Positions 191 to 60,296 of a stretch of 64,000 bases of DNA are shown here, in pieces (the first letter of the stretch is position 1; every line of letters starts with the position of its first letter). A program made the translations under genes and the position numbers. Under the pieces are notes generated by a model, which had not been told where the DNA came from, did no database searches, and saw nothing but the letters and a program-made list of their open reading frames with translations. The stretch is from contig JBFWNU010000001.1 in NCBI GenBank assembly GCA_050250895.1, forward strand, positions 1,416,008-1,480,007, given 5' to 3'. The DNA comes from Vulcanimicrobiota bacterium (lineage in GTDB: Bacteria > Vulcanimicrobiota > Xenobia > Xenobiales > JADMJV01).

Positions 191-234
191 GTTAATCCGT
201 CGTTCATAAGCCGGTCAACGAGGCGGAGTATGTT
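191..234 (+). promoter_or_regulatory. Phased-repeat promoter of the S8 protease
   Basis: GTTAAT(191), GTTCAT(202), GGTCAA(213) at 11-bp period; -10 TATGTT at 229, 38 nt after the first box; GGAGG RBS before ATG 261. Confidence 0.6.
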
Positions 235-260
235 TAGGCGAACAAATCGGAGGAACCGTC

Positions 261-2504
261 ATGATTTCACCTTTGCGTGCCAACCAGGTCGCACCCTATG
301 CCCGTCCCGCCGTGGCTCGGGCATCCGCTGCCGAGCCCGCTCCCGCGGCCGATCAGGCCAGTCTGTCGGGTGGCTCGAACCTGCAGAGTCTGCTCGAAGC
401 CACCGCCCCCGAGGCGGCCTCGCTGGCCGGCAAGCTCGGTCCCCACGAGCCCGGCGAAGTGTTGGTCAAGCTTAGAGGCAGCGCCGGTCTCGAACAGGGC
501 GGCTTCCTGGAAGACTTCGGCGCCAAGGTCATCCACCAGTTCGAGATTCCTCAACAGATCTTTCAGAGCTTTGACGGACAATTGGTGCAGTTGAAGCTGC
601 CGGCCGGCATGTCGACGGCCCAGGCCGTGGCCGCCATGAGCAAAGACGCGCGGGTCGCCTATGTCACCCCCAACGACATCTACCAGCTCGACGAGGGCGC
701 TCAGGTGACTCCCAACGACCTCAATCCCAATCTGTGGTCGCTCAACAACACCGGCCAGAACAGCGGCACCGCCGACGCCGATATCGATGCTCCTGAAGCG
801 TGGGCCATCACCACCGGCAAAGGCGCGGCCGCCGGCGGCCCGGTCATCGCTATCATCGACAGCGGCATCGACTATAACCACCCCGACCTCAAAGACAACG
901 TCTGGACCAATCCCCGCGAGACCGCCGACGGCACCGACACCGACGGCAACGGCATCGTCGACGACCTGCACGGCTACAACGCGTATGCCCAGACCGGCGA
1001 CCCTCTCGATGGTCACTCCCACGGGACTCACGTGTCGGGCACTGTGGCGGCCCGCGGCAACAACGAGCAAGGTGTAGTCGGAGTCAACTGGGACGCCCAG
1101 CTGATGGGAGTCAAGATCTTCTCCGACACCGGTAACACCAACGCCGCCGCCATCGTGCGCGGTATCCTCTATGCCACCGCCAACGGGGCCCGCATCACCT
1201 CGAACTCGTGGGGCGGCGGAGCCTTCAACGAGGCCATTCGCGACGCCTTCGCCACCTCGCCGGCCCTGCACATCATGGCGGCCGGCAACTCGGGCACCGA
1301 CAACGACGCGGCCCCTCACTATCCTTCCAGCTACGACCTGCCCAACATCCTGGCCGTGGCTTCCACCGACCGCAACGACCAGCGCTCGAGCTTCTCGTCT
1401 TATGGCGCCAACTCGGTCGATCTGGCCGCGCCTGGCTCGGACATCTACTCGACCATGCCCAACGGTCAGTATGGCGTCAAGAGCGGCACCTCGATGGCCA
1501 CCCCCCATGTGACCGGAGTGGCCGGCCTGATCGCCAGCTACTATCCTGAGGCTACCAACGACGAGATCAAAGCTCGCATCCTGCGCGGTGCCGACAAGTT
1601 TCCCGGCCTCGAGGGCCTGGTGGCTTCGGGGGGCCGCCTCAACGCGGCCAACGCTCTCGACAACGACAGCTTGCCCCCGGCCGCTCCCAACGACTTCGCC
1701 GCCAACGCCTCGGGCTCGCGCCAGGTCAACCTGAGCTGGACGGCTACCGGGGATGACGGCTGGTGTGGCCAGGCCGCCGCCTACGATGTGCGCGTGTCGG
1801 ACCGACCCATCGTGCTCGGTGAGGCCAGCGACGGCCAGGTGAGCTTCGACGAGGCTCAGCCCGTGGCCGCCCTTCGCCCCAGTCAGACCGGCACCGTCGA
1901 GAACGTGGCCATCTCGCTGGTTCCCTCCAGCTCCGAGCGCCACCAGTTCTATGCAATGCGGGTGCTCGACAATGTCGGCAACGCCTCGGAACTGCGCGCC
2001 GCCGAGGTGACCGTGCCGGCCGCCAACCTGGCTTTCGAAGACACCATGGACGGTGGAGCCGAGAAGTGGACCGCCGACGCTGGCTGGGCCCAGGTCGAAG
2101 TGGCCGGGCGCGGTAAGGTCTGGACCGACAGTCCTGACGGGCAGTATGGCAACAACGCCAACACCTCGCTGACCTCCCAGCCGATTTCGCTGGCGCACTA
2201 CACCGGCGCTACCCTGATGTTCGAGGCCAAACACGACCTCGAAACCCGCTATGACAACCTCTATGTCGAGGCCAGCTCCGACGGTCAGAACTGGAGCCGC
2301 TTGCAGGGCTTCACCGGCCGCTCCGACTGGGCCAGCCACCAGCTGGATCTGTCGGCCTTCGACGGCCAGAATCTACAGCTTCGCTTCCGCCTTACCAGCG
2401 ATGGTTCGGTCAATGGCGACGGCTTCCACCTCGATAACGTGGTCATCGCCGGCGACTATCATCCGCCCCAGCCGCCCCCTCAGGACCCCCCTCAGCAGGG
2501 CTAA
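261..2504 (+). CDS. S8 subtilisin-like serine protease (prodomain, catalytic, Fn3-like, C-terminal jelly-roll), no Sec signal peptide
   Basis: Catalytic motifs IIDSG, HGTHVSG, AAGNSG, GTSMATP; WTATGDD Fn3-like segment; Ala/Pro-rich N-terminus with no hydrophobic h-region. Confidence 0.95.
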   Translation: MISPLRANQVAPYARPAVARASAAEPAPAADQASLSGGSNLQSLLEATAPEAASLAGKLGPHEPGEVLVKLRGSAGLEQGGFLEDFGAKVIHQFEIPQQIFQSFDGQLVQLKLPAGMSTAQAVAAMSKDARVAYVTPNDIYQLDEGAQVTPNDLNPNLWSLNNTGQNSGTADADIDAPEAWAITTGKGAAAGGPVIAIIDSGIDYNHPDLKDNVWTNPRETADGTDTDGNGIVDDLHGYNAYAQTGDPLDGHSHGTHVSGTVAARGNNEQGVVGVNWDAQLMGVKIFSDTGNTNAAAIVRGILYATANGARITSNSWGGGAFNEAIRDAFATSPALHIMAAGNSGTDNDAAPHYPSSYDLPNILAVASTDRNDQRSSFSSYGANSVDLAAPGSDIYSTMPNGQYGVKSGTSMATPHVTGVAGLIASYYPEATNDEIKARILRGADKFPGLEGLVASGGRLNAANALDNDSLPPAAPNDFAANASGSRQVNLSWTATGDDGWCGQAAAYDVRVSDRPIVLGEASDGQVSFDEAQPVAALRPSQTGTVENVAISLVPSSSERHQFYAMRVLDNVGNASELRAAEVTVPAANLAFEDTMDGGAEKWTADAGWAQVEVAGRGKVWTDSPDGQYGNNANTSLTSQPISLAHYTGATLMFEAKHDLETRYDNLYVEASSDGQNWSRLQGFTGRSDWASHQLDLSAFDGQNLQLRFRLTSDGSVNGDGFHLDNVVIAGDYHPPQPPPQDPPQQG

Positions 2505-2871
2505 ACCCATCGGGGTTAAAGTCGAGGCTGGCCGAGTTGATGCAAAAGCGGCGCCCGGTGGGACTCTCGTCATCGTCAAAGACGTGGCCGAGGTGACCAC
2601 CGCAGGCGCCGCAAATCACTTCCAGTCGATGCATGCCGCAGATGGGGTCGTCGCGATAGCCGAGCTGCTCTTCGAGCCCGGCGAAAAAGCTCGGCCACCC
2701 GGTGCCCGAGTCGTACTTGTGAGTGGATTCGAACAACCGCGACCGGCAATCGGCGCAATGATAGCTGCCGGGGACAAAGTGGTAGAGATAGGCCCCCGAC
2801 CCGCCCGGCTCGGTCTGGCCTTCGCGCAAGACCGCTCGCTGCAAAGGGGTCAGGTGAGCAGATGAGGACAT
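2443..2871 (-). CDS. msrB: Peptide-methionine (R)-S-oxide reductase
   Basis: CADC and CGAC Zn ligands, KYDSGTGWPSF, HLGHVF, RFCINS. Confidence 0.95.
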   Translation of the reverse strand: MSSSAHLTPLQRAVLREGQTEPGGSGAYLYHFVPGSYHCADCRSRLFESTHKYDSGTGWPSFFAGLEEQLGYRDDPICGMHRLEVICGACGGHLGHVFDDDESPTGRRFCINSASLDFNPDGFSPAEGGPEGAAGADDSRRR

Positions 2872-3671
2872 GTCTGGTGACTGGAGGTTCGTCTGGCCTC
2901 GGCTATGCCACCTGCCAGGGGTTGGTCCAACACGGTTTTCGAGTGGTGCTCACCAGCCGTGATCCCGACCGGGCCGCCGCGGCCGCGCGTCGCCTGGGTG
3001 CCGAAGGTATGCAACTCGATCTGGCCAGCCTGGCTTCGGTGCGGACCTTTGTTGCCGCCTTTCTCGAGCGCTACTCGAGGCTGGATGTGCTCATCCACAA
3101 CGCCGGCACGGTCGAACCCCGGCGCAGGGTGACCGAAGATGGCTTCGAGACACAGTTTCAGGTCACTTATCTGGCTCCGTTTCTGCTCGACCACCTGCTC
3201 TTGCAGGCGGTTCGACCGGAGCGAATCATCAACGTCGCCTCGGACCTTCATCGCGGCGTCGAACTGGTCTGGGACGACCTTCAGAGCGAGCGCGACTACC
3301 AGTTCGTCAAGGCTTACGGGCGAGCCGAATTGGCCCGCATTCTCTACACCTATGAGTTGGCTCGCCGCTGCCCCGACCTGACCGTCAACTGCCTGCACCC
3401 GGGCGGCGTGCGAACCAGGCTTTTTCGTAACTTTCGCGGACCCCTGGCCTGGCTGCTCTGGCTTTCGGACTGGCTCAAGCAGAGCCCCACTCGCGGGGCC
3501 GCCACCAGCCTGTATCTGGCCACCGCCGACCCCATCGGTAGCGGCGGCTATTACGTAGCCCGCCGCCTGCGCCCGTCTTCGCCCGCCAGTCGAGACCTCG
3601 ACTCGGCCCTGCGTCTGTGGGAACTCAGCTGCCAACTGCTGTCGATTCAGCGGCCCGACTCGGAGTTGTAG
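2862..3671 (+). CDS. SDR family oxidoreductase (retinol dehydrogenase-like)
   Basis: TGGSSGLG, HNAG, TEDGFE, HPGGVRT; catalytic motif reads YGRAE instead of YxxxK. Confidence 0.85.
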   Translation: MRTCLVTGGSSGLGYATCQGLVQHGFRVVLTSRDPDRAAAAARRLGAEGMQLDLASLASVRTFVAAFLERYSRLDVLIHNAGTVEPRRRVTEDGFETQFQVTYLAPFLLDHLLLQAVRPERIINVASDLHRGVELVWDDLQSERDYQFVKAYGRAELARILYTYELARRCPDLTVNCLHPGGVRTRLFRNFRGPLAWLLWLSDWLKQSPTRGAATSLYLATADPIGSGGYYVARRLRPSSPASRDLDSALRLWELSCQLLSIQRPDSEL

Positions 3672-21199: not shown

Positions 21200-21255
21200 A
21201 GCCTCAGCCTAGCCGGGCAGGGTGAAAAGAAGTTGAAATGGGTAAGACTGGGTGG

Positions 21256-22365: not shown

Positions 22366-22389
22366 TGTCCAACCAATGCTCATCTCAAC
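22337..22389 (-). ncRNA. Candidate ~53-nt small RNA
   Basis: Minus-strand -10 TATTAT (22401-22396) and intrinsic terminator about 30 nt downstream, with no complete ORF between them. Confidence 0.6.
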
Positions 22390-30912: not shown

Positions 30913-30914
30913 AG

Positions 30915-45033: not shown

Positions 45034-45049
45034 GCTCGCTCCTTAGCCT

Positions 45050-46135: not shown

Positions 46136-46153
46136 AGCTGCCTCACCTCCTTT

Positions 46154-46954: not shown

Positions 46955-46960
46955 CGTGCG

Positions 46961-47260
46961 TTACCCCGATGGTCCTATGCTGCCCACGTCGGTAAAGATG
47001 CGGATGGCGTAACTGCTGACCATGTTGGCAATCCAGGTTCCGCAGACCACCAGCGAGAGGAACGTGGCCACGATCTTGGGCACGAACGACAGGGTCTGTT
47101 CCTGTACCTGAGTCGTGGCTTGCAAGATACTGATAAATAGACCGACTGCCAGAGCCGACATCAACATGGGGGCAGAGAGGATCAAGATGAGATACAATGC
47201 CTCCGTACAGATCTCCATGATGTAGGCATCTGTGAACATCTCTTCAGCGAATATCAGCAT
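46961..47260 (-). CDS. fliQ: Export apparatus protein
   Basis: QATTQVQEQTLSFVPK. Confidence 0.96.
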   Translation of the reverse strand: MLIFAEEMFTDAYIMEICTEALYLILILSAPMLMSALAVGLFISILQATTQVQEQTLSFVPKIVATFLSLVVCGTWIANMVSSYAIRIFTDVGSIGPSG

Positions 47261-47305
47261 GTCGTTTCCTCCCTTCTTGAAAAATAGTCAACCAACGAGC
47301 CGCAC

Positions 47306-48106: not shown

Positions 48107-48762
48107 TTCTTCACCCCCATGCCGGGTAGAATCGAGGCGTAGTGGCGCAAAATTTCTTTGTAAGACTGAGGCGGGTCGCCGGACTCGGTGGTGTCGACCT
48201 TGATCGGGCGAGCCGCTTCAAGCTCTTCGGTGGTCAGCTCGCAAAGGGGATTCATGGCGTGCTCGGTCATGCCCACCACCAGGATCTTGCCGGCCACCTC
48301 GACCAGGGAGATGGAATGGGTATGGCTCAGGCGCTGGGTCTCGAGCACTTTGAGGAGGGGCTCACTGGCGCTGGACTTGCCGAAGACCCCGGGGGCGATG
48401 GTGGCCAGGCCCTTCAGAGTGCCCCACACCAGCAGGCAGGTGAGGATGAGCGGCAGCATCAAAGCCCGCAGGTCGGCCAGAAAGCCGTCGTTGGGGGCCC
48501 AATCCGGATCGACTCTGGGGTTCCAGGGGTGGGCCTGACCATAGCTGGGGCCCACCTGATGCTGACTGGGGTTGAGGGCCTCACCGAAGGTTACCGGTCG
48601 CTTGTCGGTCTGGCTGTGAGCCGGCGGTGAGGCGGGCGCGTCTTTGGGCCGCGGCGTGATCCGGGCCAGGGTGAACAGCAGCAGGATGAGCATGCAGGCC
48701 ATGGCGCCCGCCACCAACGGAGAGTTACGCCCAGCCTTGTTATAACCCACACCCTGCATCAA
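48103..48762 (-). CDS. fliO: FliO-like export gate chaperone
   Basis: TM, LKVLETQRL, SISLVEVAGKILVVG; position between fliN and fliP. Confidence 0.8.
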   Translation of the reverse strand: MMQGVGYNKAGRNSPLVAGAMACMLILLLFTLARITPRPKDAPASPPAHSQTDKRPVTFGEALNPSQHQVGPSYGQAHPWNPRVDPDWAPNDGFLADLRALMLPLILTCLLVWGTLKGLATIAPGVFGKSSASEPLLKVLETQRLSHTHSISLVEVAGKILVVGMTEHAMNPLCELTTEELEAARPIKVDTTESGDPPQSYKEILRHYASILPGMGVKK

Positions 48763-49031
48763 TTCATCAATTCGGTGATCCGAACTCCGTAATTTCCCTC
48801 GATCTCTACTACTTCGCCCCTGGCGATGAGGGTCCCGTTGACCACCAGGTCGACGGGGTCGTTGCCGTCTTTGTCGAGTTCGATCACCGCTCCCTCACCG
48901 AATTTCAACACGTCACGCACGCTCTTGGTGGTTCGCCCCATCTCGGCTTCGACGATAAAAGGCACGTCGTAAAGGATGGTAAGATCTTCCCTTTTCTTGG
49001 GCCGTTGAGGCTGTGCGTTGTAATCTTCCAC
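48759..49031 (-). CDS. fliN: C-ring SPOA protein, second copy
   Basis: DVPF..EMGRT, GAVIELDK, ARGEVV, YGVRITE. Confidence 0.93.
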   Translation of the reverse strand: MEDYNAQPQRPKKREDLTILYDVPFIVEAEMGRTTKSVRDVLKFGEGAVIELDKDGNDPVDLVVNGTLIARGEVVEIEGNYGVRITELMN

Positions 49032-49333
49032 TATTTCACAATCTCCGTGATGCGAACGCCATACTGACCATCGATCTCGACCACCTCGCCCCGAGCGATG
49101 GCCTTATTGTTGACCAGAATGTCGACCGGCTCACCGATTTCCTTGTCGAGTTCGACCACCGAGCCCACCTGCAGGCGCAGAATATCCCGCACCAGGCGGC
49201 GGGTCTTGCCCAACTCAGCCTGGACTACCAGAGCGACGTCTTTGAGCAGATCGATCGTGTTGGCGTTGGCCCCCTCGGCCACGCTGCCCTCGAGCTGGCC
49301 GAATTGAACCGCTCGGGGTCCTTGATCACTCAT
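49031..49333 (-). CDS. fliN: C-ring SPOA protein, first copy
   Basis: IDLLKDV, ELGKT, GSVVELDK, ARGEVV. Confidence 0.95.
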   Translation of the reverse strand: MSDQGPRAVQFGQLEGSVAEGANANTIDLLKDVALVVQAELGKTRRLVRDILRLQVGSVVELDKEIGEPVDILVNNKAIARGEVVEIDGQYGVRITEIVK

Positions 49334-50309
49334 CGTATTCTTCGTCTCCCTCTTGCAGAACTCGGTTGATCTTGGCAGCCAGCCGACCGTCTTTGATGCC
49401 GGGCTGGCCGAGAAACTTGGTCTTGTTGTTGACCTTGATTCGCAACGGGTCGCGAATCTCTGAATCCAGGCGGATGGTGTCGCCTACCTCGATGGTTAGC
49501 AGCTCTTGAAAGAGCAGTTCGGCGCGGCCCAAACTGACAGAAACCGGCACTTTGGCATTGTGGATGTGCTCGGGAAAGATGATTTTATCATCTTTGGGCG
49601 CCTGGAAGGTGGTGGTCAGCATGAACTCGTCAAACGACCGCTTGGGGATCATCTCTTTGAGATAGCGGAAAGGCACGCAGACGTTGATCAGGCCTTGAGC
49701 CTGGGCCACATCGACCTGGAAGGCGGTCACCACCATCGTCTCGGAGGGGGCGCAGATATAGACGGCATTGGGGTTGAACTCGAGGCTTTGAAACTGGGCC
49801 TCGACCTGGCCGACATCTTTCCAGGCGTCGCCAAAAGCCGATAGCATACGGCCCAGCGGTTTCTTCAGGATGGCCTTCTCGAGATCGGTAAAATAGGGTC
49901 GCAGCTCTTCTCGCGGGGGAGCGCCCTTGCCACCCATCAAGCGCTCGAAGATGGCAAAGGAGAGGTCGAAATCGATGTCGATGAAGCCCGAGGTGTTGTC
50001 ATTGAGGCGGAAGACCAGCACCGGGGTGGGCTCGGGCAAGGAATTCAGGTAGGAGTGGTAGGGAAAGGTCTTGAGCTTGATCAGCTCCATCTGGAAACGC
50101 GACTGGAGCAGGGGAGCCAACTGGGTGACCACCGCCTCGGAAAAGCCCACGAAAATCTTCTCCAGAAAGCGGTTCTGGTCTGAGGTGAATTTTTCGGTCT
50201 GACGAAAGTCAAAGGTGCTGGCACCCTGAAACCGCTGCCGCTGAGCTGCTCTCATCGCTTGGTCGAATCTTCCGCCATTTCCCAATTTCTCTCGGCCCTC
50301 CACGGGCAA
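49326..50309 (-). CDS. fliM: C-ring protein lacking the CheY-binding peptide; exact start uncertain
   Basis: FDFR..KF, LMGGKG, FTDLE, EFNP, SPOA C-terminus; no LSQxEIDALL. Confidence 0.93.
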   Translation of the reverse strand: MPVEGREKLGNGGRFDQAMRAAQRQRFQGASTFDFRQTEKFTSDQNRFLEKIFVGFSEAVVTQLAPLLQSRFQMELIKLKTFPYHSYLNSLPEPTPVLVFRLNDNTSGFIDIDFDLSFAIFERLMGGKGAPPREELRPYFTDLEKAILKKPLGRMLSAFGDAWKDVGQVEAQFQSLEFNPNAVYICAPSETMVVTAFQVDVAQAQGLINVCVPFRYLKEMIPKRSFDEFMLTTTFQAPKDDKIIFPEHIHNAKVPVSVSLGRAELLFQELLTIEVGDTIRLDSEIRDPLRIKVNNKTKFLGQPGIKDGRLAAKINRVLQEGDEEYDE

Positions 50310-50492: not shown

Positions 50493-51308
50493 CTATCGAA
50501 CCAGACCGAGAGCGGACTGGGTGAGCTTGTCCATAGCCCGGAAGGAGGCCATGTTGGCTTCGAAATTCTGCTTGGTCATGCCGATAGCAGCACCTTCTTG
50601 CATGAAGTCGACGTTAGAGAGTTCGAGGCTGCCGGGAGCGATGCTGCCCAGCGCACCCTGGCCGGCCACCCCGATGACGGCGCCGCCCGAATCGGCCGAC
50701 TCGACAAAGCTGGTGGTTCCCGAGCGCTCGAGCGACCCGGCGTTGGCGAATGAGGCCACGGCGGTTTGATAGATGGGAGTGGTGGTGGTGATCTGCTGCC
50801 CCGTGACGGGGTCGGTCATGGTGGCTTCACCATAGAGCTTACCGGTGTCGTCGAAGTGGAAGCCAGTGTATTTTCCGCCGTAAAGATTGGTGTTGGGATC
50901 GAGAGTCAACTCGATCGGCTTGGAGTCGCCCGAGATGTTGCCCTGCGAGTCGAGGGGGAAGCCCATCACCGACTTGCCCATCGCGTCTTTGAGCGAGCCG
51001 TCTTGCCAGGTGAAGCGACCGTCGCGGGTGTAGTGGTTCTGGAAGCCGTCGTTGACCACGAAGAACCCCTGACCGTTGATGGCCAGGTTGGTGTTGGTTT
51101 GGGTTTTGAAAATCTGGCCCTGATCGAAGGAGACGTTGTTTTTCTTGACTTTGGCGCCGCCAGCCAGGGTCGAACTCATAATGTCGTTGAACTGGACCAC
51201 TTCGGCCTTGTAGCCGGGAGTAAACTGGTTCTTGATGTTCTCGAATCGGCTCTGCAGAATCTCCTGGTTTTGAGCCATGTTGTTGGCAGCGTAGTTAAAA
51301 TCAAACAT
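50493..51308 (-). CDS. Short hook/distal-rod family axial protein (FlgE/FlgG-like, no D2 domain)
   Basis: TPGYK, NLAINGQGFF, YTRDGRF, LELSNVD; 271 aa; occupies the flgE position. Confidence 0.9.
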   Translation of the reverse strand: MFDFNYAANNMAQNQEILQSRFENIKNQFTPGYKAEVVQFNDIMSSTLAGGAKVKKNNVSFDQGQIFKTQTNTNLAINGQGFFVVNDGFQNHYTRDGRFTWQDGSLKDAMGKSVMGFPLDSQGNISGDSKPIELTLDPNTNLYGGKYTGFHFDDTGKLYGEATMTDPVTGQQITTTTPIYQTAVASFANAGSLERSGTTSFVESADSGGAVIGVAGQGALGSIAPGSLELSNVDFMQEGAAIGMTKQNFEANMASFRAMDKLTQSALGLVR

Positions 51309-51383: not shown

Positions 51384-51443
51384 ATTTTAGAGTAACCGAG
51401 GGCAGTTACATGGGCGTTACCGGCCTGTTAACGAAAAGTTAAC
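51384..51443 (-). promoter_or_regulatory. Internal phased-repeat promoter of the flgE-like gene
   Basis: Minus strand GTTAAC, GTTAAC, GGTAAC, TGTAAC starting at 51443, 51432, 51421, 51410; -10 TACTCT at 51394 overlapping TAAAAT at 51389. Confidence 0.75.
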
Positions 51444-51452: not shown

Positions 51453-52388
51453 TCAAACAACCTCCTCGACCAGCTTGACTCGCATCGCTTCCAGGCGAAT
51501 GCCCTTGGCTTTCACCTGGGAGAGAAGTTCTTCTTCGCTCTCTTCAAGCAGCTCGCGAGTGGCCCGCGAAGTGGTCTGGAACTCGGCCCGAATACCCTTT
51601 TCGTCGTGAACAAGCGAAATTTTGACATCGCCGAGGTACTCGGGATTGAGCTTGAGGTTGAGTTCGGTCTGGTTGGCCAGATTGCGTACCTCGACATGCG
51701 CCAGGATCTGATTCATCAGGTTCTGGCGCTGCTCAGCTCGCTGGGCTTCGCCCGTCTTGCCGGCTTCCCGGGTCTTCATCGCCTCTTCGGCCAGCATCTG
51801 CTCGAGACGACCACCGGAGTTCGTATTGCCCGAGGCGGCCAGCTGCTCGTTGCTGGTCTTTTGCTCTTTGCCGTCGGCCTCGCGCAGCAGCGAGTCGATC
51901 AGGCGCGAAAGCTGGTTGCGGTCGGTCTGATTGGTCAGCTGGGTCAACTGCGAGTAGGACAGGTCCTTGAGGTTGAGGCCCTTGCCCAGCAGCATTTTCT
52001 GCAGCTCGGAGAGGCCCACCTTGTCCATCGAAAATTCGCCCAGCTTGAAGGCCTGGCGTTCGGCCGTGGACATCGTAGAAGGGTCCTTGTAGGCCAGCGT
52101 CTCGAGATAGGCCTGGAGCTTGGCCCCACCCTTGAGTTGCTCGGGCTTGGCCTCGACTTTGGCTTCGGCCTTAGCAGCTTCTTTGGCGTCTTCTTTGCCT
52201 TTCTTGGCTTTGTCTTCTTTGTCGGGCGCAGCCTTGTCGTCGATGACGCCTTCTTTGCCGCCGCCGCCCGATTGGACCGCGTCATTCATTGCCGAGCTGA
52301 AAGCCCCGGCGTCGCCCTTGTCGGTTTTCTTGCTCGTCTCACTGGCTTTGGTCGTGCCCATGAGTGAGCCGATGACTGGGTTGTCCAC
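51453..52388 (-). CDS. fliK: Length-control ruler protein
   Basis: Disordered charged N-terminus; C-terminal T3S4 motif LKLNPEYLGDVKISL. Confidence 0.85.
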   Translation of the reverse strand: MDNPVIGSLMGTTKASETSKKTDKGDAGAFSSAMNDAVQSGGGGKEGVIDDKAAPDKEDKAKKGKEDAKEAAKAEAKVEAKPEQLKGGAKLQAYLETLAYKDPSTMSTAERQAFKLGEFSMDKVGLSELQKMLLGKGLNLKDLSYSQLTQLTNQTDRNQLSRLIDSLLREADGKEQKTSNEQLAASGNTNSGGRLEQMLAEEAMKTREAGKTGEAQRAEQRQNLMNQILAHVEVRNLANQTELNLKLNPEYLGDVKISLVHDEKGIRAEFQTTSRATRELLEESEEELLSQVKAKGIRLEAMRVKLVEEVV

Positions 52389-52396
52389 CGTGCCTC

Positions 52397-53041
52397 CTAG
52401 ATGCTCTGTCCGTGGTTGGAACTGTAGTAACGATAGTTGTCGAGAACCTTGGCTACGTAATCTTGCGTTTCTTGATAGGGAGGAACGCCGCCGTGCTTTT
52501 CGACTGCACCGGGACCGGCGTTATAACCGGCGATGACTTTGGTCAGGTTGCCGTCGAAGCGGTCCATCAATTGGCGCAGATAGAGGGTGCCGCCCATGAT
52601 GTTCTGATAGGGATCGTAGGAGTCGGTCACTCCCAGCCCGGCAGCCGTCTCGGGCATCAATTGCATCAAGCCCTGGGCGCCTACATAAGAGGTGGCCTTG
52701 GGGTTATAGGCCGACTCTTGCTTGATGACCGAGCGAATCAGGGCCTGATCCACACCGTGTTTCTTCGAGGCCTCGGCGATCATGCCATCAAAATCCTTCG
52801 AGTCGCCATTCCAACGGTTGGCGTTGAGTTTGGCCGGGCCCGAACGAGCGTCATAGCGCTGATCGTCGGCCAGAGAATTGACCAGGCTCTCGAAGGTCAC
52901 CCCTTCGTTGCCGGCCGGCGCGCCGCTGGTCAGATTGGTCTGGCCGGCGTTGGACTGAAATCCGGCTCGCCCTCCCTCGAGTTTCGAATCGAGTTGGGCG
53001 ATCTTCTTCTCGATCGCGGCCATTCTATTGAATACTGACAC
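52397..53041 (-). CDS. SLT lytic transglycosylase without Sec signal
   Basis: QESAYNP, GAQGLMQLMPET, YNAGPG, ETQDYV. Confidence 0.95.
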   Translation of the reverse strand: MSVFNRMAAIEKKIAQLDSKLEGGRAGFQSNAGQTNLTSGAPAGNEGVTFESLVNSLADDQRYDARSGPAKLNANRWNGDSKDFDGMIAEASKKHGVDQALIRSVIKQESAYNPKATSYVGAQGLMQLMPETAAGLGVTDSYDPYQNIMGGTLYLRQLMDRFDGNLTKVIAGYNAGPGAVEKHGGVPPYQETQDYVAKVLDNYRYYSSNHGQSI

Positions 53042-53052
53042 GATGTTCCTCC

Positions 53053-53526
53053 CTATCGCTCTTCGGCTGCTTCGCGTGCCTCACGGGCAAACTTGATGGT
53101 CGCTAGTTCGTCGATCAGACGGGCCTCGACAGCGTCCATCTCGGCCACCCATTCCTCCTGGCACTTTTCCTTGTGTTTTTCGTAGACTTTCTTCTCTTGA
53201 GCCGCCTTCAGTAGAGCTTTCCTCTGCTCTATGATTCTAATGGCTAGCTCTCGTAGACGCAACTCCTGGCTTTTTATTTTGTTCTCTAGATTCTTGATGT
53301 GGGCGGGGTAGAAGCGTAGTTCTTCCATGTTGAGGCTGCCGCTCAGGTGCTTGGTTTTGAGCGTCAGGCGGACATCCCTCAACGTCTGTTCGAGCTGGGC
53401 TTTGACCTGCTTTTCGTAAGCCTCTTGCTCGAGCAGCTTGGCCAGCTTTTCTTTCTCTTCTTCCTCTCGCTTGACTTTGAACTCGAGTACCTTCTCGAGT
53501 CGATACTTGAACTTTTTCGGCGGCAC
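53053..53526 (-). CDS. fliJ: Export ATPase stalk
   Basis: FKYRLEKVL, coiled coil, IDELA; directly after fliI. Confidence 0.88.
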   Translation of the reverse strand: MPPKKFKYRLEKVLEFKVKREEEEKEKLAKLLEQEAYEKQVKAQLEQTLRDVRLTLKTKHLSGSLNMEELRFYPAHIKNLENKIKSQELRLRELAIRIIEQRKALLKAAQEKKVYEKHKEKCQEEWVAEMDAVEARLIDELATIKFAREAREAAEER

Positions 53527-54845
53527 TAGTCTTTGAAGATCCTTCTCAGGTGATCCATCATTTCGTCAAAGGTGCTTTGCTCGTGGATGCCTTGTTTGAG
53601 AAAGGCGGCAATGGCGTCGTTCTTGGCGATAGCATAGTCGACCTTGGGGTTGGAGCCGCGCTGGTAGGCGCCGATGTTGATCAGGTCTTCGTTCTCGCGG
53701 TAGGTGGCCATGGCGTTGCGCAGGCGCCCGGCCAGCTCTTGATGCTCTTTGGTGGCGACTTCGGTAAATACACGAGAGACCGACTGCAGCACGTCCACGG
53801 CCGGATACATATTCTTGTGGGCGATCTTACGCGACAAGACGATGTGGCCGTCGAGAATACCACGAACCGCATCGGCGATCGGCTCGTTCATGTCGTCGCC
53901 GTCGACGAGCACGGTGTAGACAGCGGTGATCGTTCCCTTGGGGGAGGTGCCGGCCCGCTCCATCAGCTTCGGCAAGAGGGCAAAGCAAGAAGGCGTATAG
54001 CCTTTGGTAGCGGGAGGCTCCCCGATGGCCAGTCCGACTTCGCGCTGAGCCATGGCAAAACGCGTCACCGAGTCCATCATCAGCATCACGTTGTAACCCT
54101 GGTCGCGGAAGAACTCAGCCACCGCCGTGCCTGTGTAGGCGGCCTTGAGGCGCACCAGGGCAGGCGTGTCGGAGGTGGCCACCGCCACCACCGAGCGCTT
54201 CATGCCTTCTTCGCCCAGGTCGCGCTCGAGAAAGTCACGCAACTCACGGCCACGCTCGCCGATGAGGGCCAGCACCGCAATGTCGGTTTCGGAAAAGCGC
54301 GCGATCATGGACAGGGTGGTCGATTTACCGACGCCCGAACCGGCGAAGATTCCTACACGTTGGCCGCGGCCGAAGGTCAGGGTCGAGTCCAGCACGCGAA
54401 TGCCCATCGAGATGCGCTCTTCGATGCGCGGTCGGGTGATCGGGTTGGGTGGCGTGTTGTAGATGGGATACTCCTCTTCGCAGTCGAGGGGACCCAGGCC
54501 ATCGATCGGTTCGCCCAGACCGTCGAGTACGCGCCCCAAGAGTCCCCAGCCCACCTTCACCATGAGCGGCTTGCCCGTCGAGCGAACCTCGCATCCCGGG
54601 CCGATGCCACCCATCTCGCCCAGGGGCATGAGCTGGACCCGGTTGGCTTTGAAGCCTACCACCTCGGACCGGATGGAGCGTCCCTCCTGGTCATAAATGT
54701 AGCATAGCTCACCCAGTCGCACGGCCGGTCCCTCGGACTCGATGGTCAGGCCGATGACCTGCACCACTCTGCCGTGCTGCTTGATAGTCTGGATGCGAGG
54801 CAATATCTTTTCGTAGCGGCTAAAATCGACGGCTAACTCAGCCAT
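53526..54845 (-). CDS. fliI: Export ATPase
   Basis: AGSGVGKST, GERGRE, DSVTRFA, LDGHIVLSR; start at MAELAVDF. Confidence 0.97.
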   Translation of the reverse strand: MAELAVDFSRYEKILPRIQTIKQHGRVVQVIGLTIESEGPAVRLGELCYIYDQEGRSIRSEVVGFKANRVQLMPLGEMGGIGPGCEVRSTGKPLMVKVGWGLLGRVLDGLGEPIDGLGPLDCEEEYPIYNTPPNPITRPRIEERISMGIRVLDSTLTFGRGQRVGIFAGSGVGKSTTLSMIARFSETDIAVLALIGERGRELRDFLERDLGEEGMKRSVVAVATSDTPALVRLKAAYTGTAVAEFFRDQGYNVMLMMDSVTRFAMAQREVGLAIGEPPATKGYTPSCFALLPKLMERAGTSPKGTITAVYTVLVDGDDMNEPIADAVRGILDGHIVLSRKIAHKNMYPAVDVLQSVSRVFTEVATKEHQELAGRLRNAMATYRENEDLINIGAYQRGSNPKVDYAIAKNDAIAAFLKQGIHEQSTFDEMMDHLRRIFKD

Positions 54846-56049
54846 TCTCTTCCTCCTGCGAGAACTCGGGCTCGGCCTCGAACTCGGGCTCGGGGGTGAA
54901 TTCTTCTTCGGGTGCAAAATCGGGCTCTTGAGGGGTAACCTCTTCGAGCCCCTGGAAGTCGGGGTCGCCGGGGACCTCGACCGGTTCGGTGGCGGCCTGG
55001 TTGGCGAGTTCTTCTTCGCGCAGTTTGGCCATCTCTTCCATGCCGTGGCGAATCGCATCGAGCTGAGTATGTAATCTGGCGTCGATGTTGCCCAGGTTGG
55101 TCTCGATGGTGCAGCCGCCCGGATCGATGGTCGGATCGGCCACCACCTCAAAGCTCTTGAGCCCTTCGACCATCCGCTCGAAGCTGGCGCGATGATCGCG
55201 TACGATCTGCACATCTTGCGGGTTGACCCGGATCGAGACCTCCTCTCGGTCCTTGATGGCGCCCAGTGCCTGGCGCACGATGGCTAGAATGACCTCGGGG
55301 TCGACCTTGATGGCTTCGCCTAGCACCCGCTCGGCGATCTTGACCGCCAACCGGGCGAGTTCGGGCTCGACCGTGGCCACGATGGCCCGCCGGGCCCGCA
55401 CGGCCTGAACATACATATCCTTGGCCTGGGCAATCCGCTCGACGAACTCGCCCACCGAGGCGTTGTAGCCCTGCTGATGGCCGGCCTGTAGGCCTTCTTG
55501 ATAACCACGCTCGCGAGCCTGCTCTTCGGCCTGCTGGGCCGCCTGCTGGGCCTGCGTGGCCGTCTGCTGCATGTAGTGCTGGGCCTGGGCCTGAGCTTCT
55601 TGCAGCATCTGCTGGGCTTTCATCCGGGCCTGCTCGAGGATCTGCTCGTCGATGGGCGGACCCTTCTGCACCTCTTCTTCGGGCTCTTCCAGGTCTTCGT
55701 CGTCAAACTCGAGTTCGATGGGATCGGGCTGGGGTGGGGCCGGCGGCCGATCGCCGCCCACGATCAGCGTCTGGGTCAGCGGATTGAGGGTGCTCGGCTT
55801 GGTCTCGACCCTCGGCTTGCCACCGATGACACGGCCGGTGCTCTCGACCCTGGGCGGGCTGACCAGCGTCTGCTCGAAGGGAGGCTCCGGCTCGGGTTCG
55901 GGTTCTTCGTCGTCGCGCTCGAGCTGGGTGGGATGCATGGGAGCAAAGCTCTGCCCCTCGGCGTTGTCACGGTGCCGATACAGGTTCGACGAGGGAGCGG
56001 CGGGTTTTTGCTCTACGCTTTCTCCCTTTTTGCGCTTGATGAGTGCCAC
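54838..56049 (-). CDS. fliH: ATPase regulator with long acidic Pro-rich extensions
   Basis: GYQEGLQAGHQQG repeats, IRVNPQD, GGCTIETNLGNIDA. Confidence 0.9.
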   Translation of the reverse strand: MALIKRKKGESVEQKPAAPSSNLYRHRDNAEGQSFAPMHPTQLERDDEEPEPEPEPPFEQTLVSPPRVESTGRVIGGKPRVETKPSTLNPLTQTLIVGGDRPPAPPQPDPIELEFDDEDLEEPEEEVQKGPPIDEQILEQARMKAQQMLQEAQAQAQHYMQQTATQAQQAAQQAEEQARERGYQEGLQAGHQQGYNASVGEFVERIAQAKDMYVQAVRARRAIVATVEPELARLAVKIAERVLGEAIKVDPEVILAIVRQALGAIKDREEVSIRVNPQDVQIVRDHRASFERMVEGLKSFEVVADPTIDPGGCTIETNLGNIDARLHTQLDAIRHGMEEMAKLREEELANQAATEPVEVPGDPDFQGLEEVTPQEPDFAPEEEFTPEPEFEAEPEFSQEEENG

Positions 56050-56058
56050 AAGCGGCTC

Positions 56059-57060
56059 CTATTTGAACTTGATCTTGCCCAGGGTCACCAACCCCCTGAG
56101 GATGTTGCGAATCTGCTGTTGGGCGGCCTTGGTTTCGTCGAAGGGCACCTGGCCCAGACTCTCGACATCGTCGCGCAGAGCCTTGGCCACCTCGGGCGAG
56201 AGGAAGCGATAAATGCGCTCGGCCAGGTCCTTGTTGGCACCCTTGAGGGCCAGCACCAGGTCGCGAAAGTCGGTCAACCGCAGCACCTGCTGCAGCGAGT
56301 TGTCGTCAATATTGTTGAGGTCTTCGAAGTCACACAGCTTGGTCTTGATGTCGCTGGCCAGCCGCGGGCTCTTCTGAGTCAGCCCGGAGAGCACGCTGGC
56401 TTCGGTGCCGCGGTCCGCCTGGTTGAGAATCTGCAGCAACGTTTCCTTGCCATCGCTATGGCTTTGGAAGCCCTCCTCGAGCGCCTTGTGCAGGCGGCCC
56501 TCGAGAATCTTCTCGAGTTCAGAGACTACCTCGCTCGAAACGTGGCCAAGCTCGGCCAACCGCTTGGCCACCTCGGTCTGGGTGGTCGGCGTGAGTTCGC
56601 CGAGCACCGCCGAGGCCTGGTTGGAGTCTAGATAAGACAAGACCACGGCGATGGTCTGCGGGTGCTCTTTGCGGATCAGATGGATCAGTTGGCGCGGATC
56701 GACTTTGCGTAAGAAGCCCAGCGGACGATTGGCCGCCGCACCGGGCGGGCCGCCCATGGTCGGCGGCATCGACTTGCTGCCCATCATGGGCTGGGTGAAA
56801 GCTGCGTGGGCCGGAGCGGTCGGCGCCGAGCCGCCTCCGCCGGAGGACTGAAGAAATTCTTCGATGACTTGAGCTCGGATCTCGGGGGAGATCTGAGGCA
56901 GCTTCGAGATCTCGAGAGTGATGGCCTGAACTTCTTCGGGGCCGAGTTCTCGAAACAGTTGCGCCGAGACCTCGGGAGGGAGCGACATCAGCAAGATAGC
57001 CGCTTTCTGCTTAGGAGGCAGGTTGCTGGTCGAAATGGCCTTCCACTTTCCTTTCTGCAT
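56059..57060 (-). CDS. fliG: Rotor/C-ring protein with degenerate torque helix
   Basis: KAAILL, EHPQ, LALKG; NMSxR replaced by FLSPE, GPVR by GQVP, MFxF by LCDF. Confidence 0.95.
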   Translation of the reverse strand: MQKGKWKAISTSNLPPKQKAAILLMSLPPEVSAQLFRELGPEEVQAITLEISKLPQISPEIRAQVIEEFLQSSGGGGSAPTAPAHAAFTQPMMGSKSMPPTMGGPPGAAANRPLGFLRKVDPRQLIHLIRKEHPQTIAVVLSYLDSNQASAVLGELTPTTQTEVAKRLAELGHVSSEVVSELEKILEGRLHKALEEGFQSHSDGKETLLQILNQADRGTEASVLSGLTQKSPRLASDIKTKLCDFEDLNNIDDNSLQQVLRLTDFRDLVLALKGANKDLAERIYRFLSPEVAKALRDDVESLGQVPFDETKAAQQQIRNILRGLVTLGKIKFK

Positions 57061-57116
57061 GGTTGCGCCCCGGGACAGGCCCGAGGCGCAATTCCATCAT
57101 ATCGAAGTCTGGTCGA

Positions 57117-58790
57117 CTAGGACAGCCAGGTGCTCTTGAGCATCTCGGCCACTTTGGTGGGACGCTCTTTGGCCAGCTGTTCTAGCTGCTCGTTGGTGTT
57201 GACTTTGGTCTCGCCAGCGCTCGGAGGAGCGGTCGACTTGCCCGACTTCTCGTTGAGCAGGTCGGCGATGTCGGTCGAGGTGGCGCCCGAGGTGCCGCCC
57301 AGGACCAGTTTGCCCTGGTTGACCTGGACCGAGTGCTGCTTGACCATGAAGGTCAGAATCAGACCCAGGAAGACCAGCGCCACAGCCGTGCCAGCGATGG
57401 TCAGGTGGCGAGCGGTCAAGCCGCCGCCGCCGGCCGTCTCGCCGAAGCCGGGGGGAGGGGTGATGGCCAGATCAGTGCCACCAACCGCCGGACGATAGAT
57501 AGGCATGCTCTCGACCACGACGCTGTCGCCGCGGGCTTCGTCGATACCGATAGCGTTGCGCACGATACCGGCAATCTTGGCCACCTGGTCTTCTTTGAGG
57601 TTGTCAACGACCACCGAAGCGGTCTTGCGTTTGACGCGATAACTCTTGTCTACGGTGCGGGACACGGTCTTGCTGGTGTCGATCTTGACCGACTCGACCT
57701 CGTGCACATAGTTGTTGTTGCTGGTCCCGCCGGATGAAGCCTGTTCGACATCGGTGGACAACTGGCGGGCGTTGGAGCTGCCGCCGGCGTTAGGATCCTT
57801 CGAGTAGCTCTCGACCTTCTTCTGGCGGCCCACTACGACGGTGCCCTGGTCAGCCGGTCCGCCCACCACCGAACGGGTTACTTCGTTTTGGGAGAAGTCG
57901 AGTTCGGCATTCACGGTGGCCACGGCTTTGCCCGGGCCGAGAACTTTGTCGAGCTGGTCTTGAACCTTTTGGGTTAGCTCTTTTTCAATACCCAGCTGGG
58001 TCTCTTGTTGGGTGCCAGCGACTTGCGCGCCGTCGGGGCCCTGAGGCAACTGGGCGGTCAGGTCCATTCCCATGGTGTCCACGATTTTGACGTGCTCGGG
58101 CAAGAGTTCAGGCACCGAGAAAGAGACCAGATGGACGATGCCAGCGATCTGCTCGCGGGTCAGCTTGGCGCTCGGCTCGAGTTTGACCAGCACCGTGGCG
58201 GTGGTCGGGCGCGAGTCGTCGCGGAAGTAGGTCTGCTCGGGAATGGCCAGCTTGATGTAAGCGTCGGCCACGCCTTCAACCTGGCGAACGGTTTCGGTCA
58301 GTTCGCCCTCCAGCATCCGCTGGCGTAAAGCTTTCTGTTCGGCCTGAGTCTTGGCCTGAATGCCACCTTCGGGGGTATTGTAGGGGGTGGTGATAGCGTG
58401 CCGGGGCAGGCCTTTGGCAGCCAGGGCCACCTGGGCACGAGCTTTGGTTTTGGGAGAGACCAGAATGCCGTCGAGCAAGTCCACATTGTGGGGGATGCCC
58501 AGGCTGGTGAGTTCCATCGCCACGGCCTTGGTGTCTTCGTCGTTAAGCTTCGTGGTGTAGAGAGGCACGTAGGCGTTGGCCGTGTTGGAGTGGACCACGA
58601 AGGCCGTTCCCAAAATGGCGATCACCAGAAATGCCGAAAGAGCGATCTTGGTACCTTTGCCAAGTCCCTCCCACATTTCTTTGATTTTTCCCAGGGGCCC
58701 GCCTCCGCCGGCTGGACCTTTCCCGATTGCGGAGCGTCCTGTTGCCAGGCGACTGCCGCTTTTCATCCCCGTTTGGATCCCGGTGGCCAT
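57117..58790 (-). CDS. fliF: MS-ring protein
   Basis: Two TMs, LEGEL, VNAELDF, AIGIDEARGD. Confidence 0.95.
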   Translation of the reverse strand: MATGIQTGMKSGSRLATGRSAIGKGPAGGGGPLGKIKEMWEGLGKGTKIALSAFLVIAILGTAFVVHSNTANAYVPLYTTKLNDEDTKAVAMELTSLGIPHNVDLLDGILVSPKTKARAQVALAAKGLPRHAITTPYNTPEGGIQAKTQAEQKALRQRMLEGELTETVRQVEGVADAYIKLAIPEQTYFRDDSRPTTATVLVKLEPSAKLTREQIAGIVHLVSFSVPELLPEHVKIVDTMGMDLTAQLPQGPDGAQVAGTQQETQLGIEKELTQKVQDQLDKVLGPGKAVATVNAELDFSQNEVTRSVVGGPADQGTVVVGRQKKVESYSKDPNAGGSSNARQLSTDVEQASSGGTSNNNYVHEVESVKIDTSKTVSRTVDKSYRVKRKTASVVVDNLKEDQVAKIAGIVRNAIGIDEARGDSVVVESMPIYRPAVGGTDLAITPPPGFGETAGGGGLTARHLTIAGTAVALVFLGLILTFMVKQHSVQVNQGKLVLGGTSGATSTDIADLLNEKSGKSTAPPSAGETKVNTNEQLEQLAKERPTKVAEMLKSTWLS

Positions 58791-58865
58791 AGTTTCTCCT
58801 CTCCTACCTACCGGCGCTCTCTCTCTGTTTTAGCGAGCGCCGCTCCTTACCCCTCGCGAACTTTC

Positions 58866-59216
58866 TTAGAGCTGCATCTGGAACAGCTGAGTGGTGGCTT
58901 GGGCCATCTTGCCCACCACGGTGGTGGTCAGCTTCATCATCACCTCGGCCTTGGCGCCGGCGATGGTCATCTCGTGCAGGCCGTCCATGTTGCCGCTCAA
59001 CAGGTTGTTGGTCGACTTGATGGAGCCGTCGATGGTCGTGTTGACGGTGTTGAGGCTCTCAGCCAGCACGGCGCCGAAGGCTTTACCGTTTTCTTCGGAC
59101 TGACCGGGCTGCTCGATCATTTTCGGCATGCCGATGCCGGAGATCGGGGAACCGGTGGTTCCGATGCCGCTTACGCCGGAAGTGATACCCTGAATGGATT
59201 GAAAGGGGGACTGCAT
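58866..59216 (-). CDS. fliE: Basal body adaptor
   Basis: FGAVL, LHEMTIAGAKAE, C-terminal MQL. Confidence 0.9.
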   Translation of the reverse strand: MQSPFQSIQGITSGVSGIGTTGSPISGIGMPKMIEQPGQSEENGKAFGAVLAESLNTVNTTIDGSIKSTNNLLSGNMDGLHEMTIAGAKAEVMMKLTTTVVGKMAQATTQLFQMQL

Positions 59217-59227
59217 AATCTTACTCC

Positions 59228-59710
59228 TTAGCCTTTACCGATCTCGAGAGCTTTCATCGCCATCGCTTTCGCCGATTCGATGGTGGTTGCGTTAGCCTCG
59301 TAGGCGCGACTGGCGGCCATCATCGAGGTCATTTCTTGAATGATGTTGACGTTGGGCATCGCGACGTAGCCTTTGCGATCACCCTCCTTTTCGGCGTTGG
59401 GATTGGTGGGGTCGTAGACCCAGCGGAAGTCGCTATTGTCTTCCATAATCCCGTTGACGCCGACACCGCCGCCCGAGAAGTTGACTTTGTTGTTGAAGTC
59501 GAACTCGCCGTCCATCGAGGCAGTGGTGAACGCCTGGTCGAACATCTCGGCCTGCTTGGCATTGATCACGGCAACCTGACGGCGGTAAGGATCTCCGTCT
59601 TCGGTTTTCGAGGTGTTCGCGTTGGCGATGTTGTTGGACACCACATCCATACGGAACTGCTCGGCGCGCATTCCGCTGGCTGCAATATCGAAGGTCTGGA
59701 AGAATTTCAT
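59228..59710 (-). CDS. flgC: Proximal rod protein
   Basis: SNNIANANT, PYRRQ, GYVAMPNV, ASRAYEAN. Confidence 0.97.
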   Translation of the reverse strand: MKFFQTFDIAASGMRAEQFRMDVVSNNIANANTSKTEDGDPYRRQVAVINAKQAEMFDQAFTTASMDGEFDFNNKVNFSGGGVGVNGIMEDNSDFRWVYDPTNPNAEKEGDRKGYVAMPNVNIIQEMTSMMAASRAYEANATTIESAKAMAMKALEIGKG

Positions 59711-59729
59711 CTAGTCTGCCTCTCTCGTC

Positions 59730-60149
59730 TTATCGACCGCTGTTTTCGACAACCCACTTCAGGGAGCCGTAGATGCCCGAGATCTTCGAAGCCAGAGCGT
59801 TATACATAATCTGGTTCTTGGCCAGACTGGCCATCTCGGAGTTGACATCCACCTTACCGCCCACATCTTCGATGGTGGGCTGCAGGCTGGCTTTGGTCCA
59901 ACCGCCGGCGCCATCAATGGCGAACTCGGGGTCGACTACTCCGGCGGGGCTGAAATCGGTGTCAGAGCCGGCGGCCTCGTCATTGTCCATCGCTTCGCGC
60001 AGATGATTCTCGAAAGCAACGGTCTGGGCTGTGTAGCCCTCGGTATTGACATTGGCCATGTTGTTCGAGATGACTTGCTGGCGCAGCGTGGCCGCACCGA
60101 TAGCCTTCTCTAACAGCGTTGTGTCAACAAGTTGAAACGGCTTCCCCAA
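59730..60149 (-). CDS. flgB: Proximal rod protein
   Basis: RQQVISNNMANVNTEGY, VDVNSEM, NQIMY; AGGAGG RBS and TTG start. Confidence 0.95.
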   Translation of the reverse strand: MGKPFQLVDTTLLEKAIGAATLRQQVISNNMANVNTEGYTAQTVAFENHLREAMDNDEAAGSDTDFSPAGVVDPEFAIDGAGGWTKASLQPTIEDVGGKVDVNSEMASLAKNQIMYNALASKISGIYGSLKWVVENSGR

Positions 60150-60241
60150 CGTTTCGCTCCTCCTAGTAATCGGTCAGGTCGTCATTCGACCCTGTTTATT
60201 TCGGCGATGTCCAAATAAATTTCGGCTCTTTTCGCACTCTC

Positions 60242-60296
60242 AGTTTACCGGCGCGGTGTTTCTGTTATGTTGAGTCCATGTTAACAGCGTGTTAAC
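60242..60296 (-). promoter_or_regulatory. Phased-repeat promoter of the flgB operon
   Basis: Minus strand GTTAAC(60296), GTTAAC(60285), CTCAAC(60274), AGAAAC(60263); -10 TAAACT at 60247. Confidence 0.75.

Follow-up and report, generated by a model that had tools for sequence, protein, structure and literature searches.

A lineage-wide promoter signal tying a filament-less flagellar export gene set to enzymes without ordinary export signals in Vulcanimicrobiota

The window analyzed in this study is a 64-kb stretch of DNA (C1:1416008-1480007) from the 9.5-Mb genome of a Vulcanimicrobiota bacterium, named G000 below. It carries an operon of flagellum-type export genes belonging to a gene set that we call F2, and four of its promoters share a pattern, box A, composed of a GTTAAC box, an 11-bp repeat and a TAnnnT -10 hexamer at +38 or +39. 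Box A is a lineage-wide promoter signal that ties F2 to many enzymes without ordinary export signals. An earlier, sequence-only reading of the window had proposed that an activator-type box joins the export operon, an axial subunit, an S8 protease and a small RNA (sRNA); this observation is real and larger than was first claimed. We favor, with a probability of about 0.58, the reading that an OmpR-type regulon joins a flagellar export machine lacking a filament with some of its cargo. The link made by box A suggests an undescribed flagellum-derived protein secretion system in uncultured bacteria. An open-access literature search found no paper on the box A motif or on F2, and the phylum name was absent from PMC13277936 by term search.

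Box A in the window and across the genome

All 12 hexamers reported for the four promoters were located at their coordinates and strands. The promoter of the S8 protease (191..234, plus strand) has half-sites at 191 and 202 and its -10 at 229-234. On the minus strand, the sRNA promoter (22396..22439) has half-sites at 22439 and 22428 and its -10 at 22401, the internal promoter ahead of the axial gene (51389..51443) has half-sites at 51443, 51432, 51421 and 51410 and its -10 at 51394, and the promoter of the flgB operon (60242..60296) has half-sites at 60296, 60285 and 60274, a fourth at 60263, and its -10 at 60247. The proposed distance of exactly 38 nucleotides (nt) holds from 191 to 229, 22439 to 22401, 51432 to 51394 and 60285 to 60247, measured at the flgB and axial-gene sites from the second half-site, but genome-wide the spacing is 38 or 39. 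Using a held-out matrix trained solely on 38 sites outside contig C1, the four promoters ranked 1st (sRNA), 7th (flgB), 34th (axial gene) and 46th (S8) among 7.9 million C1 positions. The sRNA site is the top-scoring one of G000, with the same spacing retained in the related genome G001, and the S8 site (score 18.8) is the weakest of the four, equalled by 15 control-spacing positions. A candidate fifth site (22443..22486, plus strand) lies ahead of gene 22504, the protein of which begins with a hydrophobic segment; its held-out score of 12.9 is reached by 164 positions versus 90 at control spacing and is not separable from controls.

The same geometry recurs throughout G000. A total of 1091 GTTAAY matches are followed by TAnnnT at +38 in 41 cases and at +39 in 29, versus a median of about 6 at other spacings, with minor peaks at 47-49, 58-59 and 12-13. 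Half-sites at 11-bp steps, as described for the four promoters, are general, since the second half-site peaks at 11, 22 and 33 nt (45, 20 and 13 cases), and the 11-bp direct repeat was observed 39 times versus 0.8 in shuffles. Two of the checks that the sequence-only reading had suggested came out in its favor. In 3621 intergenic regions, 57 patterns with spacing 38/39 were found versus 4.1±1.8 (maximum 8) in 30 dinucleotide shuffles, and a genome scan with an iterated spaced matrix gave 97 sites scoring above 23 at 38/39 versus 16 at the control spacing 34/35.

An ATG is found 12 nt past the hexamer start at 25 of 197 sites, versus 1-4 sites at offsets 6-11. This test supersedes an earlier, smaller and indecisive one (6 of 70 strict sites versus 13 of 313 at other spacings). 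The peak fits leaderless transcripts, whose start sites we infer about 7 nt beyond a true -10. The hexamer is mostly TATAAT-like in AT-rich relatives, and both properties fit a true -10, which would place the half-sites near -50 and -39, the position of an activator. RNA-library contigs from a relative with 90-99% identity (four runs of one study) cover F2 and end at 60221-60277, near the predicted start at about 60235; they were not counted, because contigs cannot show starts and DNA was possibly present.

Box A is conserved ahead of flgB across the phylum Vulcanimicrobiota. It is recognizable there by eye in 28 of 30 related loci, that is, in all those with upstream sequence, where four half-sites are in phase and the distance to the -10 does not vary; it is degenerate in family f3. 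Among further loci, mostly from distant families, scores above 15 were obtained for 6 of 7 upstream regions of flgB and for 14 of 22 of the axial gene. Of 121 genomes of the phylum, 31 contain the strict box with its -10, and none of these is among the 52 genomes of families f15, f20 and f21, which also have no axial gene. In G045, from a distant family, the genes behind boxes often have similar N-termini, as judged by eye.

The F2 genes and the leader-bearing proteins

G000 holds two flagellar gene sets. F1 (C1:545-594 kb and 121-128 kb) encodes flagellin, caps, hook and stators, and none of the 62 genes in its regions has a box above 15. F2 consists of the flgB-flhA operon in the window and a second operon (C1:1290089-1294728; box A score 19.5) encoding FliK-like, FlhB-like, FlgF, FlgG, FlgJ-like and FliA/WhiG-like sigma proteins. 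Pfam, NCBIfam and gene order assign the window operon, entirely on the minus strand, to basal body and ATPase genes (flgB, flgC, fliE, fliF, fliG, fliH, fliI, fliJ, a lytic transglycosylase and fliK-like; 51453..60149), followed by the axial gene (50493..51308) and by export gate and C-ring genes (fliM, two fliN, fliO, fliP, fliQ, fliR, flhB and flhA; 42925..50309). The export gate, ATPase, MS- and C-ring and rod that define a flagellar core are thus all present. The F2 FlhA scores 802 against the FlhA model, above its cut-off of 772, and 615 against the SctV model, below its cut-off of 692. Whereas injectisomes are recognized by an SctV-type gate without FlgB, FlgC and FliE, F2 carries flgB, flgC and fliE. 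No linked secretin was found at F2, and no search aimed at a needle or translocon was made.

The distribution of F2 is distinct from that of motility genes. Of 41 genomes, 40 have the F2 FlgC and 10 the MotB plug; flagellin and the hook cap FlgD occur together in one set of 8. Of the 33 genomes that lack flagellin, 32 have the F2 FlgC. Gene order is unchanged across families, and FlhA identity amounts to 60-80% over many of them. The 271-amino-acid (aa) axial subunit at the flgE position is labelled FlgE by databases and was read as flgE-like from the sequence. Its predicted fold argues otherwise: the structure model (predicted local distance difference test score 86) matches chains of the size of the distal-rod protein FlgG best (template modelling score 0.81) and has no hook outer domain. 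With a rod-type axial protein and without a dedicated filament, hook cap or stator, F2 alone cannot give rise to a motile flagellum. A search of 121 genomes located the axial gene in 62, in one of them via a longer paralogue only, and in none of families f15, f20 and f21. Its homologues are labelled Vulcanimicrobiota or Eremiobacteraeota, with some Armatimonadetes, Chloroflexi and others, on assembled genomes.

Several variants of these genes were also observed. Longer axial paralogues (frames of 470-530 aa at G002:C9:66126, G008:C81:13406, G010:C62:97945 and G004:C27:47449, and P0110) are possibly axial subunits fused to another domain. In the F2 operon of locus L224 (G025:C71), the axial gene and fliM are separated by an additional open frame of 476 aa. 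Several proteins consisting only of the cytoplasmic FlhA domain and a third FliF-like gene were noted at G000 C6:529281, C1:2013805, C7:117220 and C1:2473808 and at L149:5058-6560; none has a clear box.

The enzymes behind box A share an unusual N-terminus. A leader rule, applied to the protein only, requires an early Ile or Val, few acidic residues, a polar composition and no hydrophobic core, followed by a D-x-hydrophobic-x-hydrophobic motif. It flags 235 of the 8208 genes that our own script called in G000. A box A above 15 lies upstream of 63 of these 235 leader genes versus 250 of 7973 others (odds ratio 11), and with the held-out matrix on C1 the counts are 17 of 92 versus 71 of 3352. 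Hydrophobic N-termini are depleted behind box A (9 of 170 versus 1438 of 7624), residue 3 is Ile or Val in 47% of the box A proteins, and a D-x-V-x-L-S/G-like motif, which we take to resemble the N-termini of FlgM, occurs in 23 of 170 versus 209 of 7624. By leader density, 15 of 699 open reading frames were flagged in G000, 5 of 334 in G017, 5 of 297 in G005, 1 of 309 in the F2-less G050 and 7 of 1428 in other phyla, all of them small numbers. In G005, no leader gene preceded by a box turned up in a 320-kb sample, and targeted loci then gave some. A sigma-28 consensus matched five genes, none with a leader.

Sixty box genes, drawn from the 197 top sites and the strict list, were scanned against Pfam, and 27 of them have a family: 11 peptidases, 6 other hydrolases (lipase-like, amidase plus transglycosylase, phosphatases and glycosidase) and 10 others. 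The expected enrichment in signal-less hydrolases and toxins was borne out for hydrolases (17 of 27 assigned proteins) but not for toxins, of which no recognized family was found among the 60. Phytase-like and histidine-phosphatase genes belong to the box A set, and 13 box genes, subtilases included, form one blastp family. The S8 subtilase of the window (261..2504, plus strand; prodomain, S8 and MAM-like domain by Pfam) satisfies the leader rule, having a type-III-like N-terminal leader and no hydrophobic signal, and is a candidate cargo of F2.

Leader genes without box A revealed a second promoter class, box B, through their enrichment in TTTCAG-N5-TTT. Of 356 such sites, 86 have a -10 exactly at +27, and a box B matrix gave 235 sites above 18 versus 5 controls, with an ATG 12 nt past the hexamer start in 66, so transcripts of this class would often be leaderless. 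The 235 leader genes comprise 63 with box A only, 56 with box B only, none with both and 116 with neither. The proposal of one master regulator for the apparatus and its cargo is consequently half right: box A couples F2 to part of the cargo, but box B marks a separate, non-overlapping set of leader genes. Box B is plentiful in families f1 and f2 and scarce in f3. The window has one box B member, a leaderless one, which encodes a 298-aa protein starting M-L-I-H without a Pfam family (20303..21199, minus strand). Its promoter (21206..21238, minus strand; score 25.0) has half-sites at 21238 and 21227, the -10 at 21211 and the ATG 39 nt past the box. For the OmpR genes C8:295619 and C1:347561, G020 and G040 supplied orthologues and the matches of G017, G026 and G033 included none, a distribution that parallels box B.

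Candidate regulator, proposed export route and rival explanations

G000 encodes 19 full OmpR-type DNA-binding domains, and the 2.4-Mb genomes G017 and G026 encode three. The most conserved OmpR regulator (C4:483019-483717) adjoins a kinase gene, which is short as called (348 aa) and scores 212 of 725 against the WalK model. Of the 69 genomes in F2-bearing families, 63 have an orthologue with 72-100% identity; the other 52 genomes have none, as no match there exceeds 56%. The best models of the C4 regulator are YycF/WalR and MtrA, with PhoB third, and its closest solved structure is MtrA, followed by RegX3. From conservation, co-distribution and model matches we infer that the OmpR family, already named by the sequence-only reading, is the best candidate class, and box A is probably read by the C4 WalR/MtrA-like regulator, as judged from these sequence comparisons.

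The likeness to MtrA of Corynebacterium and Mycobacterium and to WalR/YycF of Bacillota lies in the repeat period, the sequence and the regulator models. The MtrA box, in the part of the source available, is an 11-bp direct repeat of similar sequence, located upstream of the -35 when activating (PMC3353115), and the WalR box is described in excerpt as an 11-bp direct repeat that resembles box A (PMC4168254). Unlike in those regulons, the conserved targets of box A are a type III export cluster and leader-bearing enzymes. A CtrA-type reader, suggested earlier from the box spacing, was not borne out: three conserved OmpR proteins of the 19 were scanned against NF045991, two scored 155 and 160 of 350, and CtrA was outside the top 25 models of the best candidate. 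Box A matches the published MtrA and WalR consensuses at least as well as that of CtrA. For Caulobacter, the available text on CtrA describes TTAA-N7-TTAA spacing, control of flagellar genes and a full motif starting near -35/-39 (PMC4287350). The TTAA spacing is common to both, but the first half-site of box A would begin near -50.

In the proposed mechanism, an OmpR-family dimer would bind two half-sites one helical turn apart, just upstream of and over the -35 region, and recruit the housekeeping polymerase to the TAnnnT -10, with strong promoters carrying up to four phased half-sites. The C4 regulator would switch on F2 and many of its substrates, and box B would control another set of leader genes. 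F2 would consist of the gate, ATPase, C-ring, MS-ring and a tube of rod-type subunits, with no dedicated filament, hook cap or stator. Its substrates would be proteases, lipases, cell-wall hydrolases and uncharacterized proteins, in which a non-hydrophobic N-terminal leader would replace the Sec signal. We think it likely, on the basis of leader and box sequences, that the leader proteins are exported by F2. Box A serves as a read-out of genes belonging to an uncharacterized machine in a lineage known almost solely from assembled genomes. It separates a conserved filament-less export system from a patchy motility flagellum, both of which annotation pipelines lump together, and it yields a candidate substrate list and a candidate regulator for in vitro tests.

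Several observations weigh against an OmpR-type regulon that couples F2 to its cargo. The leader rule was devised after the box genes had been viewed, so the enrichment is not fully independent; gene starts were self-called and are approximate; the 250 box genes outside the leader set fail the rule, and 116 of the 235 leader genes carry neither box. No box above 15 lies ahead of the axial gene in 8 of the 22 further loci. The exact GTTAAC pattern does not exceed its reversed control in G002 (37 versus 38), G012 (26 versus 40) and G019 (19 versus 86), genomes chiefly of family f3, in which the half-sites have drifted. The C4 regulator scores below both curated cut-offs (YycF 291 of 340, MtrA 269 of 300), is unlinked to F2 and has no box upstream, and its co-distribution with F2 is one clade contrast. 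The cells are diderm, Omp85 being found in five of five, and the two secretins of G000 belong to operons for type II secretion and pili that have no box; therefore, no outer-membrane exit was identified for F2.

The alternatives differ from this reading in the exit of the cargo or in the reader of the box. F2 and the leader proteins could be co-regulated within a broad regulon for envelope or lifestyle under an essential WalR/MtrA-type regulator, the leader proteins leaving through an accessory SecA or through Sec plus type II secretion. Agreeing with that, the second SecA of G000 is among the top scorers for box A (31.3) and carries box B as well, some leader proteins have a hydrophobic segment further in, and the C4 regulator is 93-100% identical in the larger genomes of the order, as essential regulators tend to be. 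We nevertheless regard this route as unlikely. The extra SecA varies from 0 to 5 copies per genome and was not found in G005, G007 and nine of nine informative g5 genomes, while box and leader genes persist in G005, G007 and G017, which have one SecA. The later hydrophobic segments are at background (26 of 170 versus 1059 of 7624, p=0.58), and the type II and pilus operons lack the box. With a leader-like extension, seen by eye, and a box, the extra SecA looks like cargo. That protein has 1194 aa (L145:5315-8896; G000 C12:63314-66898) and carries both boxes, and the extra copies of relatives range from 800 to 1500 aa.

A box A class that is real for F2 and its cargo, and read by another OmpR protein, factor family or alternative sigma factor, is in our judgement quite unlikely. 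Two further OmpR regulators are also retained in reduced genomes, a FliA/WhiG-like sigma gene sits in the second F2 operon, and box B indicates that more than one reader exists; but the two other OmpR proteins are less conserved (47-80%), the canonical TATAAT -10 of AT-rich relatives fits the housekeeping sigma, and phased 11-bp repeats of up to four units fit tandem winged-helix binding. Repeats of 11 bp are typical of PhoB/PhoP- or GlnR-type regulators, and the phytase-like and histidine-phosphatase genes, with PhoB as third-best model and RegX3 as second-best solved relative, would suit a phosphate or nitrogen starvation regulon that induces scavenging enzymes. Such a regulon is improbable, as no member of the PhoU family was found in G000, blastp with E. 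coli PstS, PstA and PhoU brought no match there, glutamine-synthetase-like and ammonium-transporter-like genes chosen by sequence motifs have no box, and the most conserved box A targets are F2 genes. The idea that box A is an AT-rich intergenic pattern, or that F2 is a copy of the motility flagellum in decay or in a helper role, could draw on the modest S8 site taken alone and on the FlgE label of the axial gene. It is hardly tenable in the face of the shuffles and the hold-out test, the preserved gene order and FlhA identity, and the F2 FlgC of the flagellin-less genomes.

Possible relation to injectisomes and other features of the window

As judged from sequence trees, F2 may be closely related to the injection needles of pathogens. 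Its FlhA clusters with six proteins passing the SctV model, with Shimodaira-Hasegawa-like (SH-like) supports of 95 (82 rows) and 98 (47 rows) and 96/93 under LG+C20 (30 rows), and the same split was recovered from concatenated FliP, FliQ and FliR (SH-aLRT 98; quick search, 31 rows). The trees are unrooted with both stems long, and used 30 of about 100 available rows; an FlhA contig scan gave one close relative among the best 80 loci, so the flagellar rows are not a designed sample. A plasmid search for further gate proteins yielded two records, which the trees leave out. Against this position, a tree in which injectisomes group with Gracilicutes flagella is not rejected by the approximately unbiased test for FlhA (p=0.134).

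In regulons of the HrpG/HrpX and HrpL injectisomes, one motif at a fixed distance from the -10 marks both the machine and its substrates, which have polar, acid-poor N-termini. Unlike these systems, box A has a different motif, and F2 is flagellar by its gene set (FlgB, FlgC, FliE, FlgF and FlgG). In the accessible part of Abby and Rocha 2012 (PMC3459982), the intermediate between flagellum and injectisome was inferred to have lost motility and to have translocated proteins. F2 fits that intermediate while keeping rod genes. The early-branching non-flagellar type III secretion system of Myxococcales is described there as flagellum-derived, without a stator or a linked secretin, and was proposed as a translocator (PMC3459982). 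Together with other injectisomes it forms the branch nearest to F2 in our trees, and since it lacks FlgB, FlgC, FliE and FliG, which F2 keeps, F2 is closer to the flagellum. Tentatively, F2 could be a living intermediate and the sister of all injectisomes, which has lost filament, hook cap and motor, keeps a rod-type tube and exports more than 100 leader-tagged enzymes (extra SecA copies included) controlled by a master OmpR regulator, the probable purpose being to attack other cells or to digest them. If this position is true, the long-debated transition from flagellum to injectisome is still represented by a living system that has its rod proteins, and it becomes open to structure and biochemistry.

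Two published descriptions can be set beside these results. A 2022 paper (PMC8983047) describes, in the portion available, a small non-polar residue at the extreme N-terminus and a second hydrophobic motif 30-40 residues on; the early Ile or Val of box A proteins is similar, but their second motif, D-x-V-x-L-S/G-like, differs. In Paoli et al. 2022 (PMC9259500), marine relatives are reported as motile, probably predatory and rich in degradative enzymes; the tables list separate flhA loci, and the available portions of the text single out no non-motile system.

The candidate sRNA is about 53 nt long (22337..22389, minus strand) and, by sequence and seed copies, consists of a 20-nt seed, a terminator hairpin (22347-22362) and a U-run. 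At gathering thresholds, Rfam matched only a tRNA in the window and left the sRNA unmatched. The seed has 12 copies in G000, 13 in G001 and none in 39 other genomes. The other 11 copies in G000 are dispersed 90-nt cassettes with their own direct-repeat promoter and terminator (C1:1327856, C1:1378110, C1:1611406, C1:3040098, C1:3180204, C2:292982, C3:107338, C3:433249, C8:237405, C8:368553 and C9:17064). In copies other than that of the window, another direct repeat stands at -27/-16 and the terminators are species-specific, and among those of G001 only the window counterpart has a flank mapping beside a G000 copy. The seed is complementary to an AUG-CUC-AUC-UC start. Pairing with start codons is weak (leader genes -11.9 versus -11.3 kcal/mol, p=0.004; box genes p=0.12), and 2 of 100 shuffled seeds were equally good.

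A gene with no assigned function (60503..60958, plus strand) stays head-to-head with flgB across the families of relatives, and the palindromic half-sites of flgB also score as a box for it (+60280). An Atlas search with it returned unnamed clusters only, and it is a candidate chaperone or regulator. At 99.6% completeness, the 9.5-Mb genome has no PhoU and no clear PstS or PstA. Elsewhere in the window, two circularly permuted operons of ATP-grasp, alpha-E and transglutaminase-like genes lie 5 kb apart (17035-20335, plus strand; 25145-28389, minus strand), and an M48 peptidase gene is followed by three tandem AIM24-family genes (28352-31586, plus strand). A metallo-beta-lactamase-fold protein fused to cyclic-nucleotide-binding domains (38073-40259, plus strand) is preceded by allantoinase-like, 5-hydroxyisourate (HIU) hydrolase and urate oxidase genes.

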